Program-made: the position numbers and the translations under genes
Source of the DNA: Myxococcales bacterium
GTDB taxonomy: Bacteria; Desulfobacterota; Binatia; HRBIN30
Length of the DNA: 64,000 nucleotides
Assembly (NCBI GenBank): GCA_037445065.1
Contig: JBBILD010000006.1
Coordinates: 137,187-201,186, forward strand
Direction: 5' to 3'
Notes under the pieces: generated by a model
The model's database searches: none
Told to the model about the DNA's origin: nothing
The model's input: the letters and a program-made list of their open reading frames with translations, nothing else
Shown here: positions 3,027-49,682 of the stretch, piece by piece
How positions within the stretch are numbered: the first letter of the stretch is position 1
Layout of the letters: each line of letters opens with the position of its first letter

Positions 3027-4034
3027 ATGGTGATGCGTCGACTGGGGCTGGCGGCAATCGGGGCATTGCTCGCAGGGTTGTTCGTTTGGTGGTGGTGGGC
3101 GGTGGAAGAGCGACGAGAAATGGCGATTCGGGGCTCGGGAATCATCGAGGTGACCGAGGTGGACGTAGCGTTTGAGGTGCCGGGAACGATCGCCGAGCGC
3201 TATGTGGACGAGGGAGCGCTGCTCGATCGAGGGGAGCCCATCGCGCGGCTGGACGAGCGCGAGTACCGCCTGCAAGTCGAGCGCTGGCAAGCCGCGAAGG
3301 CTGCGGCCGAGGCGCGGTACGAGCTATTGAAGCGAGGTCCCCGCGGACAAGAAGTGGATCAGGCGCTAGCGGCATTGGAGTCGGCGCAAGCGGAATTCGA
3401 GGTTCGCCAGCGCGACTTCTCGCGAGTCGAAGAGCTGTTTCGCCGAGGAGTGGTTTCCCAGGCAGAGTGGGATCGCGCTCGGGGGGCTCTAACCGCCGCG
3501 CAAAGCGCGCGCGATGCCGCACGCTCCCGGCTCGAGATGTTGAAAGAAGGGTTTCGTACCGAAGAAATCGAGCAGGGACGTGCGCAGGTACGCGAGGCCG
3601 AGAAGGCGTTGGCGATTGCGGAACTCAACTTGGCGCGCTGCCAGCTCTTTGCTCCGATCGCGGGGCGAGTGCTCTCCAAAAACCGTGAGGTGGGAGAAGT
3701 CGTGGGCCCCGGGACCCCGGTGGTGACCATGGGTGATCTCACTTTTGTTTGAAATACTTGGTACGTGAGCGAGCGCGACCTCTGCAAGTTGCGGCTGGGG
3801 ATGGCGGGGCGCGTTTACGTGGATGCGTATCCAGGCCGGCCCTTTCCAGCACGGGTGAGTTACATCGCGGACAAATCCGAATTCACGCCGAAGAACGTCC
3901 AGACCCAGGAAGAGCGCGCCAAGTTGGTCTATCGGGTCAAGCTGGAACTCGCGAACGAAGAGGGGATTCTCAAGCCAGGGATGCCTGCCGATGTAGTGAT
4001 CCCGCTCGACTCTGCAGTTGCCGAAGGCCACTGA
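3027..4034 (+). pseudogene. HlyD-family membrane fusion protein interrupted by an in-frame TGA at 3750-3752
   Basis: ORFs 3027..3752 and 3765..4034 share a frame. Together they form one HlyD protein: TM helix, coiled coil, then ...VDAYPGRPFPARVSYI.... A single TGA separates them, inside an unusually AT-rich 25-bp patch. Confidence 0.55.
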
Positions 4035-5042: not shown

Positions 5043-5765
5043 TTAGGGCGCACACCCGGCCAGTGCCACCCCCACGGCGGCAATGAGTTCGTCAACGGTA
5101 ATGATCCCGTCCTGGTTGGCATCTCCGGCGGCGCACTGTGCAAGCGGGGCCTGTTCGAGAGCGATGTTTACCATGAGTAAGACGTTGTTGATCGTGACTT
5201 CCCCGTCGCCATCGCAGTCCCCGATACACCCCGTTGGAGGTTGCGTGGGAGTGGGGGTTGGAAAGGTGCCTTCACCTTGGCAGGTGCCGAGGATGCAATC
5301 GCTATCGTCCACACACGCAAAGCCGTCTCCGGAACATACGCGGCCTGTGGCCCAGCAAAGCGAACCGGGGCAGTGTTCGTTGCGTAAGCAGGACAAGCCC
5401 TTGAGTTCCCCTCCAAGGCAAATCTTCTGCGTGCCTCGACAGGGCGCCGCCGAGCCGCAGTTGTACGCGGGATCGCAGCACTCGCCCTGATATGGGCCGC
5501 CCTCGCAGGTGCCGAGTTCGGGATCGTTTGTGCAGGAGCCGACGCTCGAGCATTGGCTTCCCGGACAATCACAGTCGAAGCCGTCGTCTGGGCCACCGTC
5601 GCAGACTCCCTGTGCGACCACGCAGGAGCCGCTCGGGCAGTCTTCCACGCGGGCGCACGGGCGGCCGTCGTTCGGTCCACCGGAGCAGAGGCGTTGTTGA
5701 GCCAGTAGTTCGCTAGCGAAGGAGCACGCGAGCAGCAGGAAGAAGGCGCGGGCGGTTGTCATCAT
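5043..5765 (-). CDS. secreted cysteine-rich repeat protein with C-terminal dockerin-like double repeat
   Basis: Signal peptide MMTTARAFFLLLACSFASELLA. Many CxxGxPxDGxxC-type repeats follow, then a PT linker (TPTPTQPPT), then GDCDGDGEVTINNVLLMVNIAL...GDANQDGIITVDELIAAV. Confidence 0.7.
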   Translation of the reverse strand: MMTTARAFFLLLACSFASELLAQQRLCSGGPNDGRPCARVEDCPSGSCVVAQGVCDGGPDDGFDCDCPGSQCSSVGSCTNDPELGTCEGGPYQGECCDPAYNCGSAAPCRGTQKICLGGELKGLSCLRNEHCPGSLCWATGRVCSGDGFACVDDSDCILGTCQGEGTFPTPTPTQPPTGCIGDCDGDGEVTINNVLLMVNIALEQAPLAQCAAGDANQDGIITVDELIAAVGVALAGCAP

Positions 5766-34124: not shown

Positions 34125-34471
34125 GGGGGCGATCTGGTTTCGACGGAGGTGAGAAGGTACGTGGTTGCGTGCCCGGGAGCCTGGGTACCGGTGAACAACC
34201 CCAGGGCTGCATAAACGCAGACGAACCGCTTGCTCTGGCTGCCTAAAGCGCAGTCACGTCTCCCCGACTCGAGCCCGTAGGGTCGGGTGAGGCGTCGCAA
34301 ATCGGGCTAAGCGGTGGTGGCTGCTCGGACACCACCGACGAAAACGTACGAGCTGGCACTTGGATTCCCCGCCCGTGGGGCCGCCAAGTGCGAGAATCAA
34401 ACGCGTGGCTACGCACGTAGAGACCACGGCTGACTGCCTCCGGACGGGGGTTCGATTCCCCCCGCCTCCAC
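34125..34471 (+). ncRNA. ssrA: tmRNA (ssrA)
   Basis: 5' GGGGGCGATCTGGTTTCGACGG. Tag reading frame ...GCAGACGAACCGCTTGCTCTGGCTGCCTAA (..ADEPLALAA*). 3' T-arm/acceptor GGACGGGGGTTCGATTCCCCCCGCCTCCAC. CCA is not encoded. Confidence 0.85.
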
Positions 34472-34480
34472 TTTCTTCAC

Positions 34481-35503: not shown

Positions 35504-36385
35504 CGGAACCCCTCCTTTCTTTTTGAAAAGAACGGCTTTGCTCTTCGACAACGTAGCCGTTTGGGATGCGGTGGCAGCCAGGAATACAGAGCTCGGAATT
35601 CTGCCCTTATTTGCTGTGACAGCAATTCATGGTAAGTTTGGATTCCAGATCGGGGCATTGATTGCAAGAAGTCGGAAGAAAAAATTTTCTATCGAACTGT
35701 CGGGCGGGCCCCCAAGGACGCACCAGAGAGTCGCGAGTGTTTCTGATGGTGCGCCCGCAGCATTTCGAGCAGCAGCCGGCCCGAGTCTGCGCCTCTCAAG
35801 ATCGGAAGAGCGAGGCAAGGCTGAGGAAAAGACCGAAGGGATCTCCCAGAGCGCGCTTTGAGGCGAGACCATCGGTAGTGAGCGGATGAGCTTTGTGCTC
35901 GGGCCAGGCTTGCTAGGGCCGCGACCGCCGAGCACGGAGTGGCGCGCCGCGTTTGTCCTGCTCTTCAACTTGGCTCGCTGCTGGGTGCTTTAGCAGAGCG
36001 AAACCTCCACGAAGTAGCGACCGCTTCTGTGGCGAAATGTTGTCTGCTGATTTGGGAGCGCATCCGTTTGGGATCTTCGGAAAGTTCCCGCCCTGATCCA
36101 GCGCGGGCCTTGGCGCCGTGCGTTCCAGAATGGTGGTCAGACCGGCGAGACGCTGGGCACCCGCATGTTAAGGCGGCGCTTGTCCGTGTGACTTCGAGCC
36201 CCGCCGCTACTGGTCCTCGATCAGCCACTGCCTTGGCAGCGTAGCCTGGTCCCGTGCCGCCAATCGCTCCGTGTACCGTAAAAAAACTTTCTCGATTCGT
36301 TGACCTCGTTTGCCGGGATCGGGTAGGGCGCCAAAGCAGTAGCCCGGGAGGGTCGAATCATGCTTGACCGTGCTGTGCTTTTGGC

Positions 36386-39137
36386 ATGCCCGGCCGGGGT
36401 GGTTCGCGCCTTGTGGCCTCCGCACGCTTCGTTCTGCCTGGGAGCGCACTGGCAGCGTTGGCCGCCCTCGGCTTCCGGGGCGACAACGGCGGGGAGCGGC
36501 AGGCGGCGTGGCGAGCGGCGGATTTCGTGGCCTTCAGAACGGTGGAGGCCACGCGCGCTGGGACGGGTGCGAAGTCTCCCGTCCCCGCTCTGTTCGAAGC
36601 AGGCCGTGTACAGGCTGCGCCGCGGCAGGGACCTTCGGCATTGCCGCCGTTGGTGCAGGCGGCGGTGTCCAGAGCAGTAGGTAAGGATCGCGCCCAATTT
36701 CATGCGCGCCAGGAGTTGCAGAGCGACGCGATTCGCTTCGCGCAGCCCGGGCGAGGTCTCGAGGCAGAACTGCGCCCAGAGCACGGGCTGACGGTAAGGA
36801 GCGTGTCTGGCCACCAATGGGGCCTGGAACTGACGCGTTGGGGCTGTGGGAAAGATTTGCGCTCTGCCGGGCCGGTAACCGAGCAGCACCTGCTGGCAAA
36901 CGAAGTCACGTGGGTCCGGAACGGAGGCGGCCTCCGCGAGTGGTATGTGCATGGGCCGTTCGGGATTCAGCAGGGCTTCACGGTCGTGAGCGCGGGTGAG
37001 TCTTGTAGGCGCGAGGCGGCGGATGAGCTGGTACTCGAACTCCAGGTGCGTGGCAGCGTGATCGGCGAACCCGAGCAAGATTGGCGGAGCGTGCTCTGGC
37101 GCGACGCAAGGACGCAAGAGCCCGTCGTCCGCTATTCGGGTCTCATTGCATACGATGCGAACCACCGAGCGCTGCCGGCACGCATGGAGTTGGGGCGGGA
37201 CACGTTGGAGCTGCGGGTGGCGCTGGCGGGGGCGGAGTATCCAGTAGTGGTGGATCCGTTCGTGCAGGAGGCCAAGCTTACCGCAGCAGGCACTGCAGGC
37301 TTGGCCTTGTTCGGAGCGTCAGTGGCAATTGACGGAGACACGATCGTTGTCGGGGCGCCGGGCGTGGACTTTGATGTCGGGGCTGCGTACGTGTTCGAAA
37401 AACCAGCCTCTGGTTGGAACATCACGTCTACCTACTCGGCCAAGCTCACTCCCACGTTCGACGACACGTTTTTGCCTGAAGGGTTCGGTTACGCCGTCGC
37501 CATCTCCGGCAATACGATCGTCGTGGGGGCTCCGTTTTCCACGGTGCACGAGGCGCTCATGATGAAAGAGGCGATCGGCTTGGCGTATGTATACGTGAAA
37601 CCGGATACGGGCTGGGCCGACATGACCGAAACGGCCCGGCTCCGGCCAAGCGATGCCGGCTCGGTCGAGGACTTCTTCGGCTACTCGGTCGCCATCGAAG
37701 GCGACACAATCGTCGTGGGCGCTCCATCTCACACGCCGCCCCCCCGGGGGCGAGGCGTTGCAGTTCAATGGATCCACATACGTCTTCGTGAAGCCCGAAT
37801 CGGGTTGGTCCAACATGACTGAGACTGCCAAGCTCGAAGCAGAAGGAAAGTGGTTGGGTGCCTCGGTGGGCATCAGCGGTGACGTTGTTGTGGTGGGTGC
37901 CCCACTCCATGATCTTGAAGAAAGAGTGAATGCGGGCGCCGCGTACGTGTTTGCACGGCCCGCCGGCGGGTGGACTGGACATGTGCCGCCAGTTGCGAAG
38001 CTTACCGCCTCCGACGGGGAAGCGGGGGATCAACTGGGGCACAGCGCGGCCATCGATGGCGATACCATCGTCGTCGGCACCTTGTTCGACGACGTTGATG
38101 GAAGTGCGGACTAAGGTTCCGTTTATGTGTTTGCCCGCCCGAGCGGTGGCTGGCAGGACACGACGGAAACAGCCAGGCTGACGACCTCGGACGGGGCAGC
38201 CGAAGATTGGTTCGGGCTTGGCTTGGCGATCGAGCACGATACGATCGTTGCGGGAGCGCAGCAACACGACGTTGATAGTGCTTCGAATCAAGGCGCTGCT
38301 TACGTGTTCCTCAGGCCCTCGGGTGGCTGGGCAACGGCGACAGAGGACGGCAAGCCGTTGGCGTCGGATGGGCAAGCTGACGCCAACTTTGGTGTGTCCA
38401 TCGGTTTATCGGGCGGGGTGCTAGTGGCGGGTGCGCTCTTTCACGACCAGAACGGGAACGTAGATCAGGGCTCCGCCTATGTTTTCGCCCGGGAGTTGGA
38501 GCCCCCTTCTCCAACGCCGACCTCGAGTGCGACCCCAACCCCAACCCGGACCCCGACGCCGACCCTGACCCCGACGCTGACCCCGAGCGGCGCTTGCCCA
38601 GCGCTGCCGCGGCTCGACTGCGATCTACCAGCGCGAGCGTCTTTGTGGCTCCGCGACTCTCTCCTCGATCGCGGCGACCGGTTCGCTCTCCGCTTGTTGC
38701 GCAGTGCCCCGAAGCGCAAGCGGGCTGAGTTAGGCGACCCGACCGAAAGCGCGACGTACTCGGTCTGCATGTGGCAAGGTACGGAACCGATGGCACAAAT
38801 GCGAGCGTGGGATCGGAGGAAGTGGACCTCCGGGCCGCGCGGTTATCGGTACATTGATCGCTCGGCATTGAGTGACGGACTCGTCCTGCTCGGTTTGCGG
38901 ACTGGCGGCGATAGGTCGGCCAGAAGGACGCGCGTGATCGCCTTCGGCAGGGGGGTAGCCTTGCCGGAAGTGGCACTTCCCCTGAGCCTGCCGGTGCAGC
39001 TCACGGTTCAAGTGGTGGAGTCAGAGAGTGGCGTCTGCTTTGGCCAAACGTTTACCGATGCTCAGGTGATTGAAAACCGTGAGGATCCCACCGGGCGAAC
39101 ACGGGTGTTTCGAGCCGAACGGCCCAAGGCGCCGTAA
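36386..39137 (+). pseudogene. FG-GAP (integrin-alpha-like) repeat protein, disrupted by a frameshift and a nonsense codon
   Basis: About 9 repeats of the form FGxSVAIxGDTIVVGAP....GAAYVF spread over three tracked ORFs (36386..37822, 37653..38114, 38127..39137). The frame changes inside CCCCCCCGGGGG at about 37735-37750. An in-frame TAA at 38112 sits where sibling repeats have CAA (VDQGSAYVF). C-terminus has a PT linker plus an unknown Cys-containing domain. Confidence 0.65.
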
Positions 39138-46318: not shown

Positions 46319-46974
46319 GGTTTGCCTCCCGAGAACCAGCGGTTCTCGAGGCACTCCCGCAAGCGCAGGCGCGCCCGGTGCAACATGACGTTCAAGTTCG
46401 TTGCCGTAATCCCTAGGCTGGTACAGATCTCGTGGCTTTCGAGTCCTAAAAACTCCCGCATCATGAAGACCCGTGCCTGGCGCGCGGGCAGATGCTCTAA
46501 GCACGCTTCGAAGACTTGCCAGAACTGTGCGTTTTGAAACGCATCTTCTGGGTCTTGCCAGGTACGAGGGCGTTCTTGAGCGAGCCAAAAGCCCTGCTGA
46601 TCGAACCACTCCCCTTCTTCCTCCTCGTCCTCCCGCAGCAATTGGCTGGCCTCAACCAGTCGCTGGCGCCGGCGCAGCTCGTCCGCGACTTTGTTTTTGA
46701 GGATTGCAAACACCCACGTCTTGAATGCCGAGCGGCCGGCAAAGGTGCTCGCGTTTTTCATTGCACCAGCGAGTGCCTCCTGAACGGCGTCCTCGGCTGC
46801 CTGGGGATCGGACAGTTGCAGGGTGGCGAACTTAAGCATTTGCCGGCGCAACTCACCGAGAAACCCCTCGTCGAGCGCCGCCACACTGGTTGCGCGAGCA
46901 CTGCCTAGCGAAGGTGGCGTCCGCGTCTCATTCATTGGTTGTCCGTCGTTCTGTTCGGCCAGAGTGTCTTTCAC
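46312..46974 (-). CDS. RNA polymerase sigma-70 factor, ECF subfamily
   Basis: Region 2 and region 4 (HEICTSLGITATNLNVMLHRAR) of ECF sigma factors are present. Confidence 0.85.
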   Translation of the reverse strand: MKDTLAEQNDGQPMNETRTPPSLGSARATSVAALDEGFLGELRRQMLKFATLQLSDPQAAEDAVQEALAGAMKNASTFAGRSAFKTWVFAILKNKVADELRRRQRLVEASQLLREDEEEEGEWFDQQGFWLAQERPRTWQDPEDAFQNAQFWQVFEACLEHLPARQARVFMMREFLGLESHEICTSLGITATNLNVMLHRARLRLRECLENRWFSGGKPC

Positions 46975-48132
46975 GCACGGGGGCAGGGAAAAGCTGGAAG
47001 TAAACTACCGAAGGAGAAACGAGCAATAAAGCTCCTGTCCAGCGTTTCCTTCCACTTCCAGGCCAAGCGGCCTTCAAAATGCAAAGGACCCCACGCCGCG
47101 ACGGCATAGCCAGGCCCGCAGCTCAGCAGAGATAGGGTCCATGCGCGCGGCTGGACCATTCGCAACGGTTCACCGCATAAAGCCGCCCGGAGGTTGTGGG
47201 CAAGGAACGACCCCGTGCGTGCAGCGTGGATGTCCGCGCCCGGCAACCTACCACCGGCGGGCGTGCACGTCTCTCCAACGCAGAAGACGTTGGGATGCGA
47301 GACGCTGCGGTGCGAACTGTCCACGAGTACGAACCCCGCCGGGTCGAGGTCCAACCCCGATTGCCGCAGCCAGTGCGGAGGGCGCACATTCGTGGCTGCA
47401 AGAACAGTATCTGCCGCCAAGTGCCTACCGCTGCCGAGGAACACGCCGGCGGAACTGCCCACCGCGTCCTCTCGGATCCACTTGATTCCAGCCGTGCGCA
47501 ACAACCGTTGGATACGGCGGCGCACGCCCTCCGGGTAGCCAGACAACAATCCTGCCTCACCGCTAATGAGCACAGTCTCGACCCCGAACGGTCCCAGTTT
47601 CTTCTGTGCGGCGAAGGCGAGTTCGACTGCATGACGTCCCTCGCCGATCACTACGATGCGAGAAAGCGTGCCTCGCTGTGCTCTGGTGACAAGCTGCTGC
47701 CAACCCGCGCAAAAGTCGGTTGAAGGACGGAGTGCTAGCAGGCGGTTTCCGCAGGCAGCGAGGCTCGAGACATCCGTTTCCCCTTCGAGTTCGAGCGAGA
47801 CCACCCCGTAGGCAAGTGTGGCGCCGCTCACGAACCGGGCTCGAGACTGCCGTGCGTCAATCGCTGCGATTCGGTCTTCGATGAAGCGGATCCTTGCCCG
47901 AGCGCATAGGGCCCGCAAATCGATCCGCCATTCTTCTTCCCGATAGTACCCGCCCATCCACTCAGGCAGCATCCCAACGGGAAACGAATACCGCGTGGGA
48001 GCCACGAGTATCACTTCCCCTGCATCGAGCGGCGTGCGGGCGAGCTGCTCGAGGACGAAGAGGTGGGCCTGCCCCCCCACCGGCCAGGAGTAGCCGTCGC
48101 CTGCCATTGTGGGTGGATTGCAGCGCCTCCAT
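46971..48132 (-). pseudogene. FAD-dependent pyridine nucleotide-disulfide oxidoreductase (NDH-2/SQR-like) with a frameshift in a C7/G7 tract
   Basis: Body VVIGEGRHAVELAFA...VFCVGETC is in the frame of ORF 46971..48107. The N-terminal Rossmann MEALQ..RRRLLLAGGG lies in another frame (ORF 47962..48636). The two frames meet at CCCCCCC, 48061-48068. Confidence 0.55.
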
Positions 48133-48323: not shown

Positions 48324-49682
48324 TCAGAGGACCAGTTTGTACGCGAGACCGAACGCGCCGCTCAGCGCAATAACTGGGATCACGCCGGCTTGCTGGCGAA
48401 AGAGCAAGTAGGTGGCGCCAAGGGCAATGCATGCTGAGGGCCAGTCGAAACGGCCGCTGAATCCATGTGGCCAAAGCACGTGGTAAGTCAGGAACAATGC
48501 CAAATACACGATCACCCCGGTTACCGCCGCAGTAACTGCCTGTAGCGGCGCCGTGAGCGTCAGATTGCCGCGCGTGGATTCGACCATAGGGCCACCCGCG
48601 AGAATGAACAGAAAAGAGGGCAGAAAGGTAAACCACGTGGCCACTAGGGCGGCGAGTGCCCCTCCTGCAAAGGTGTACTCCGGGCCGAGGAGTGCCTGCC
48701 GGTAGCCGGCTACGAAGGCGACGAAGGCCACCACCATGATCAGTGGACCTGGAGTCGTTTCGCCGAGCGCTAAGCCGTCAATCATCTCTCCAGGAGTAAG
48801 CCAGCCGTAATGGTTCACAGCGGCTTGGTACACATAGGGAAGCACCGCGTACGCGCCCCCGAAGGTGAGCAAGGCGACCTTGGTAAAGAACCAAGTCATC
48901 TGCGTGAACATGCCACGCCAGCCGTCCGTTGCGGCCAGCCACGCCATTGGCACCACCCAAAGCAACGCACCGGCCACCAGCACTCGGGCAAAGCTGCGCG
49001 CGCGAAAGCGGGTGTGTTCTGGTGGGGGCGTGTCCTCGTCGATCAGCGCGGGAGTAAATTGCGAGACGGCCCCATTTGTTTTTCCCAGCAATCGCTCAGG
49101 AGCCAAGCGCCAGGCCAAGTAGCCGACCACCGCCGCGCCGGTCAAAATCGCCGGGAACGGCACCTGGAGGGCGGAGATGGCCACGAAGGAGGCGGCCGAA
49201 ATTGCCCAAAGCAAATGGCTGCGAAGCGTACGCGTGCCAATGCGGTAAGCGGCGTGCGCGACGATCGCGGTGACCGCCGGTTTGAACCCGTAAAAGAGCC
49301 CGGCCACAGCGGGCTGGTTGCCGAACGCAACATAGAGCCACGCTAGTAGGGTCAGGAGGATCAGCGACGGCAGGACGAACAGGGCTCCAGCAGCAATTCC
49401 GCCCCACGTGCGATGCAGTAACCAGCCAATGTAGGTGGCAAGCTGCTGGGCTTCCGGCCCGGGAAGCAGCATGCAGTAGTTCAGAGCGTGCAGAAAGCGA
49501 GGTTCGCTGATCCAACGCCTCCGCTCGACGAGTTCGGCGTGCATGATCGCGATTTGGCCGGCTGGACCACCAAAGCTCACGAAACCAAGTTGGAGCCAGA
49601 ACCGAAGCGCCTCCCGAAAGCTCACAGTCGCTGGTCGCGAGGTTGGTCCCTGGGAAGGGGGTTCCGTCGTCTGCGCTGTCAC
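48324..49682 (-). CDS. chrA: chromate ion transporter (CHR family)
   Basis: Duplicated ChrA halves with FGGPAGQIAIMH and LLTFGGAYAVLPY motifs. Confidence 0.85.
   Translation of the reverse strand: MTAQTTEPPSQGPTSRPATVSFREALRFWLQLGFVSFGGPAGQIAIMHAELVERRRWISEPRFLHALNYCMLLPGPEAQQLATYIGWLLHRTWGGIAAGALFVLPSLILLTLLAWLYVAFGNQPAVAGLFYGFKPAVTAIVAHAAYRIGTRTLRSHLLWAISAASFVAISALQVPFPAILTGAAVVGYLAWRLAPERLLGKTNGAVSQFTPALIDEDTPPPEHTRFRARSFARVLVAGALLWVVPMAWLAATDGWRGMFTQMTWFFTKVALLTFGGAYAVLPYVYQAAVNHYGWLTPGEMIDGLALGETTPGPLIMVVAFVAFVAGYRQALLGPEYTFAGGALAALVATWFTFLPSFLFILAGGPMVESTRGNLTLTAPLQAVTAAVTGVIVYLALFLTYHVLWPHGFSGRFDWPSACIALGATYLLFRQQAGVIPVIALSGAFGLAYKLVL

Follow-up and report, generated by a model that had tools for sequence, protein, structure and literature searches.

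Probable recent and independent decay of the gene for a putative secreted FG-GAP propeller protein in two sister bacterial lineages

Ordinary bacterial pseudogenes carry lesions such as a +1 indel in a mononucleotide run or a transition to a stop codon, and the FG-GAP gene described here is broken in the same ways. It lies at positions 36360-39137 (+) of a 64-kb stretch of DNA (hereafter the window, meaning all 64,000 nucleotides analyzed) from contig JBBILD010000006.1 of GenBank assembly GCA_037445065.1, deposited as a Myxococcales bacterium and placed by GTDB in the Binatia. Among named matches, the MtnA encoded in the window is most similar to proteins of Candidatus Binatia (68-71% identity), which points to this taxon. 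Our analysis indicates that this locus is probably a recently, independently decaying pseudogene of a secreted propeller protein: its lesions are lineage-specific, its ratio of nonsynonymous to synonymous substitution rates (dN/dS) is raised, and nothing essential separates it from the ordinary case, the point of note being parallel, independent inactivation in two sister lineages. With bacterial FG-GAP_2 proteins such as P0017 (KatS3mg077_2208, a protein of 965 amino acids from a Candidatus Binatia metagenome-assembled genome, MAG) the gene shares its full architecture, at 42-48% identity over at least 90% of the length; unlike its intact homologues, it carries a frameshift and a nonsense codon, and several of its blades lack the conserved Gln and contain small indels. 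With the simple-sequence-repeat (SSR) contingency genes of Campylobacter, Neisseria and Haemophilus it shares an intragenic poly-C tract and a secreted or surface-type product, but its additional lesions mean that it cannot switch back on, its tract is minimal, and the sister copy is inactivated by other means. Phase-variable genes with poly-G/C tracts are nominated at a cut-off of at least 7 nucleotides, established tracts cluster at 9-10, and variability has been documented for tracts of at least 8 (PMC6321876).

The earlier note on this DNA, written from the letters alone, had described an integrin-alpha-like FG-GAP gene of roughly 2.7 kb that changes frame inside a C7G5 run and meets a stop codon created by a single C>T change, and all three elements of that description stand. 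Positions 37730-37760 read CACACGCCG-CCCCCCC-GGGGG-CGAGG, with the C7 run (Table 1) followed directly by G5 at 37746-37750. Deleting one C yields a single reading of 2751 nt (about 2.75 kb) with one internal stop, and reading that TAA as Gln gives a protein of 916 amino acids in which the frameshift falls at residue 452, within repeat 3, and the stop at residue 576, within repeat 5. The repaired protein contains seven evenly spaced FGxSVAIxGDTxVVG motifs, matches Pfam FG-GAP_2 (PF14312) with seven repeats at E = 7.2e-81 and aligns along its whole length with homologues; given this score and this alignment, the interruption of the reading frame is not a matter of chance. The C run itself encodes Pro-Pro-Pro-Gly-Gly in blade 3 (CCG CCC CCC GGG GGC), a segment that is not conserved in the homologues, and the position of the TAA is occupied by Gln in all three of the intact homologues. 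The earlier note had also given CAA as the codon at this position in sibling repeats, which is correct for repeat 6 (38289); the repeat that it quoted, NVDQGSAYVF, is repeat 7 and uses CAG (38466), so that the Gln stands, the codon quoted does not, and the conclusion is unaffected.

The restored protein runs from an N-terminal beta domain through the seven FG-GAP_2 repeats and a Pro/Thr linker to a Cys-containing C-terminal domain. Fragment 1 holds a signal-peptide-like N-terminus, the N-terminal beta domain (~36626-37300), repeats 1-2 and half of repeat 3, and the third fragment includes the Pro/Thr-rich linker (~38493-38588) and the C-terminal, Cys-containing beta domain (~38589-39134); the called open reading frame (ORF) 38127..39137 continues in the same frame as ORF 37653..38114. 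The repeats are predicted to form a seven-bladed, integrin-alpha-like beta-propeller, and the ancestral product was presumably secreted. The locus is thus a member of the FG-GAP_2 family by descent, yet it has no uninterrupted coding sequence with which to close the propeller, and its fragments are presumably non-functional.

Comparison with a sister lineage establishes the lineage specificity of both lesions. We located this lineage through a 90%-identity cluster shared by the C-terminal fragment and a protein of 602 amino acids, P0133, which is encoded in GCA_964574465.1 (contig CAZNNR010000002.1) and on Logan contig SRR11582147_720, at a locus fully syntenic with the window and 96% identical to it over 21.8 kb; no difference separates the two sister assemblies within the gene, and a further contig with the same 602-amino-acid product exists besides the Logan assembly compared. 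The sister tract is C6G5 and in frame, reading ...SHTPPPGGEALQ... (...SHTPPPGGEALQFNGSTYVF...), and the sister has CAA at the position of the stop, so the two lesions in the window are lineage-specific: one added a C to a C6 run and the other changed C to T. The sister gene is nonetheless also broken, by 1-nt deletions at the window-equivalent positions 36774 (EAEL|RPEHG) and 37251, which leave its N-terminal domain in three frames; the second of these disrupts the invariant AEYPVVVDPF. Together with the probable third lesion in the window described below, five lineage-specific lesions, none of them shared, lie within one gene of 2.75 kb. We also considered whether these indels might be compensating frameshifts (+1, -1, -1 in the sister; -1, +1 in the window) and rejected this, as the segments between them hold conserved motifs that are out of frame. 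Exact-pattern scans of Joint Genome Institute (JGI) metagenomes, allowing either a tract length of 8-16 or any base at the stop position, returned no further copies.

The sister lineage recurs in sequencing runs with neighboring SRA accessions (L089, Logan SRR11582145; L087, SRR11582148), and the neighboring accessions (SRR115821xx) suggest, without establishing it, that both lineages come from a common project. A third variant of the 240-amino-acid protein encoded at window positions 5043..5765, P0145, is found on a 1.2-kb Logan contig and hints at further strains.

Substitutions between the two lineages are consistent with a recent release from constraint. The frame-corrected window gene differs from the sister gene by 35 synonymous and 38 nonsynonymous changes, a dN/dS of 0.37, and 15 of 16 neighboring genes lie at 0.04-0.33, with CarD at 0 (no nonsynonymous change). 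The ratio of nonsynonymous to synonymous counts, 1.09, exceeds that of the pooled neighbors (0.50; Fisher p = 0.0025) and falls below the neutral expectation of 2.86 (p = 7e-5), so that the gene is not yet evolving neutrally. These values fit a gene under constraint through most of the divergence whose release was recent, covering roughly the last 10-25% of the elapsed time if omega was previously 0.15-0.3.

The 5' end of the gene provides a probable third lesion. In the sister, the ATG equivalent to 36360 shares its frame with the conserved N-terminus (MLDRAVLLACPAGVGSRLVASARF...), whereas in the window this ATG, which is preceded by a Shine-Dalgarno sequence, opens an out-of-frame ORF of 106 amino acids; the first in-frame start in the window, ATG 36386, has no Shine-Dalgarno sequence. 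A -1 change at ~36400 therefore probably uncouples the Shine-Dalgarno-led ATG from the gene, the direction of the change being taken solely from the position of the Shine-Dalgarno sequence.

Table 1. Features of the FG-GAP locus, in window coordinates
Feature	Position	Strand	Details
Probable ancestral start	36346..36362	+	GGGAGG Shine-Dalgarno sequence at 36346-36351, 8 nt upstream of ATG 36360-36362
Fragment 1 (ORF of 478 amino acids)	36386..37822	+	Frame 2; ends with 25 out-of-frame codons
Probable third lesion, 1-nt deletion	36396..36401	+	Window GGGGTGG, sister GGGGTTGG; from indel list and three-frame translations
Seven FG-GAP_2 repeats	37310..38492	+	Starts at 37310, 37484, 37676, 37854, 38034, 38211 and 38388 (Pfam, motif positions)
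C7 run with +1 insertion	37739..37745	+	Pro-Pro-Pro codons of repeat 3; C6 in sister
Fragment 2 (homologous part of ORF 37653..38114)	37746..38111	+	Frame 0; remainder of repeat 3, repeat 4, most of repeat 5
TAA nonsense codon	38112..38114	+	Repeat 5, ...DGSAD*GSVYVF; CAA (Gln) in sister
Fragment 3	38115..39137	+	End of repeat 5, repeats 6-7, linker, C-terminal domain, natural TAA stop

The intact relatives of this gene show what has been lost. Our homologue search covered 5.8 billion proteins and mostly returned matches to the repeats only, with three proteins, P0017, P0034 and P0062, reaching at least 90% query coverage. These intact homologues are 871-965 amino acids long and align end to end with the repaired protein, at 44-48% identity in the multiple alignment (42% for P0017 by BLASTP). 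The motifs EWYVxGPxGxxQGF and AEYPVxxDP are invariant in the N-terminal domain and, in the alignment with the three homologues, four Cys residues are invariant in the C-terminal domain. No Pfam family matches the N- or C-terminal domain, and searching PDB sequences with the family profile brought up no solved relative. An alignment scan of species-representative genome contigs with the N-terminal domain recovered 253 loci, the best at 40% identity, from a collection that contains neither the source nor the sister genome, and a word-indexed search with the same domain returned the window's own fragment and otherwise matches of at most 39% identity. The family is widespread, occurring in Acidobacteriota, Myxococcota/Sorangium, Binatia, Solirubrobacterales and others, across many soil and sediment phyla.

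At the level of fold, the AlphaFold model of P0017 comprises a beta-rich N-terminal domain, a propeller with a predicted local distance difference test (pLDDT) score above 90 and, beyond a disordered linker, a C-terminal beta domain. Foldseek places the headpieces of integrin alpha5, alphaV and alphaIIb as the best PDB matches of this modeled propeller (E ~1e-17; template modeling (TM) score ~0.65 on the target), and all of the top 50 PDB matches of the P0017 model are integrin alpha chains. The label "integrin-alpha-like" used in the earlier note therefore appears justified at the level of fold, by proxy of a modeled homologue that stands in for the window protein.

We propose that replication slippage added one C to the C6 run, which would shift the frame and end translation 25 codons on; that the conserved Gln codon of blade 5, CAA, became TAA through a C>T transition; and that a 1-nt deletion near 36400 probably disconnected the Shine-Dalgarno-led start. 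As the sister carries none of the window's three lesions and is broken at different places, the gene was probably intact in the common ancestor, and each lineage would be losing it separately, whether because selection has relaxed or because loss is favored. The chief technical concern is that one or both of the window's lesions are sequencing or assembly errors and that the real gene is intact, which we judge unlikely. The concern has grounds, as the window assembly does contain errors. At 35799-35811, an intergenic site upstream of the FG-GAP gene, the contig carries the exact core of an Illumina adapter, AGATCGGAAGAGC, in place of sequence that is present in Logan contig SRR11582170_29443 and in the sister, and this is an assembly artefact; at 3743-3760, a foreign, AT-rich patch of ~18 nt, CTTTTGTTTGAAATACTTG, puts a TGA into an RND-adaptor (HlyD-like) gene at 3027..4034 (+). 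Logan contig SRR11582170_3086 ends exactly at this patch and its terminal 11 nt match the intact sequence of the sister, so the TGA near 3750 is an assembly artefact as well. Both C7 runs in the window, moreover, coincide with +1 frameshifts relative to the sister, and the two assemblies of the window lineage probably share reads. Yet the Logan contigs, which differ from the window at both artefacts, agree with it on the C7 run and the TAA: SRR11582170_29443, the output of another assembler, departs from the window over 14.7 kb only in the one cluster at 35799-35811, is 100% identical across the gene and encodes the same fragments of 478, 99 and 336 amino acids (the last from 38127). The earlier note had allowed that a corrected sequence might prove continuous or that relatives might share the interruptions; the second assembly instead repeats both, and the sister lineage has neither. 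The embedded adapter identifies the data as Illumina, and consensus indel errors at 7-nt runs are uncommon in such data. The TAA, furthermore, is a substitution and not a homopolymer error. The case for an inactive gene also goes beyond a single assembly, with an NCBI MAG and at least one Logan assembly both showing a disrupted sister gene. The lesions of the FG-GAP gene are hence not of the junction-artefact type, though a small doubt remains.

A biological alternative, raised in the earlier note, is that the C run is a phase-variation (contingency) tract, with C7 as the OFF state and the C6 of the sister as the ON state. Secreted or surface-type products such as this one are often phase-variable. 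The comparison of tract lengths suggested in that note gives different values for the two known lineages, and the intragenic poly-C reaches the nomination cut-off of at least 7 (PMC6321876). Seven is nevertheless the bottom of the tract-length range, and C6 versus C7 is a fixed difference between two lineages that are ~4% diverged. With C6 restored, the TAA, 122 codons downstream, would still end the reading and the 5' frameshift would probably persist, and the sister with the supposed ON tract is inactivated by two frameshifts outside any repeat. In this genome, with 63% GC, the tract is simply coding sequence for Pro-Pro-Pro-Gly-Gly within a segment that homologues do not conserve, and the window has fewer long G/C runs than expected; phase-variable expression is accordingly not favored, and we consider it quite unlikely. 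Programmed recoding, in which +1 frameshifting or transcriptional slippage at the C run and read-through of the stop would together yield the full-length protein, is extremely improbable. Runs of CCC Pro codons can promote +1 slippage, but the shift site is unconserved, the sister and three distant homologues are in frame there, and the gene, broken elsewhere in its sister copy, would require two independent events. TAA, moreover, is the normal stop of 10 of the 40 intact genes in the window, on which ground we also rejected a reassignment of the stop codon.

Recent pseudogenization remains our preferred account, and several points weigh against it. The dN/dS of 0.37 is modestly above that of the most relaxed neighbors (0.28-0.33), such that long-standing weak constraint is inseparable from recent loss. 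Two lineages are known, and the ancestral state is read from homologues that are distant (42-48% identity). A single run probably underlies the two window-lineage assemblies, so that both could carry the same systematic read error at the C run, and the window assembly holds the two local artefacts at 35799-35811 and 3743-3760. It is conceivable, though doubtful, that the parallel knock-outs reflect selection for loss, for instance because phages or predators use the protein as a receptor or because it is a costly public good, with the poly-C as a nascent contingency tract that served as the first off-switch in one lineage. If parallel loss does reflect selection, the gene may mark a surface or secreted protein that is costly to uncultured Binatia, a suggestion that is speculative. 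The finding itself is most likely a real yet ordinary pseudogene of a known kind and matters little beyond annotation, for which the fragments (478, 99/153 and 336 amino acids) are best described as one pseudogene and not as three FG-GAP proteins. The case also serves as a worked control for assembly quality, as one comparison supports the lesions and exposes two artefacts and a frameshift in a Pyr_redox_2 gene.

The lesions of the FG-GAP gene stand against a largely intact background. Across the 64-kb window, ~47 sister gene calls were compared, of which about 37 (30 of 34 among those whose identity Pfam supports) are colinear and have no internal stops in either lineage; the clustering of five lesions is therefore particular to the FG-GAP gene, and we rejected a general collapse of gene integrity on the same evidence. 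G/C runs of at least 7 are depleted in the window, with 2 observed against 12.7 +/- 3.1 expected under a first-order Markov model, and both of these are frameshift lesions, as would be expected of runs that slippage creates and that selection otherwise disfavors. The other run, a C7 at 48072-48078, lies in a Pyr_redox_2 gene (46971..48107, -) and is +1 relative to the sister (TC5), a difference also present in the Logan contig. This insertion splits the Rossmann dinucleotide-binding motif, LLLAGGG|QAHLF, leaving the called ORF of 378 amino acids without the first beta-strand, and this oxidoreductase gene is probably a second homopolymer-slippage pseudogene.

Besides these two genes and the artefactual stop near 3750, further exceptions to the intact background lie elsewhere in the window. 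The ChrA gene of the window (48324..49682, -) is continuous; in the sister (L003/L092), a 2-nt deletion in a (GC)n run at window position ~48996, in the linker between the Chromate_transp halves, splits ChrA. A radical SAM gene at 1712..~2998 (-) shows a 1-nt indel at ~2917, ~27 codons in, with G4 in the window and G5 in the sister, so that either the N-termini or the start codons differ. Between 49500 and 55400 (~6 kb), hypothetical ORFs whose Pfam match is a weak EF-hand only are separated from the sister by ~37 indels, mostly not multiples of three. Identity is lower here, at ~95% for the alignment that runs from 46479 to the end of the window, and this block is either non-coding, decaying or hypervariable DNA. 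A full-length transfer-messenger RNA (tmRNA) gene (Rfam RF00023, 165.8 bits) lies at 34125-34473 (+), ~1.9 kb upstream of the FG-GAP gene.

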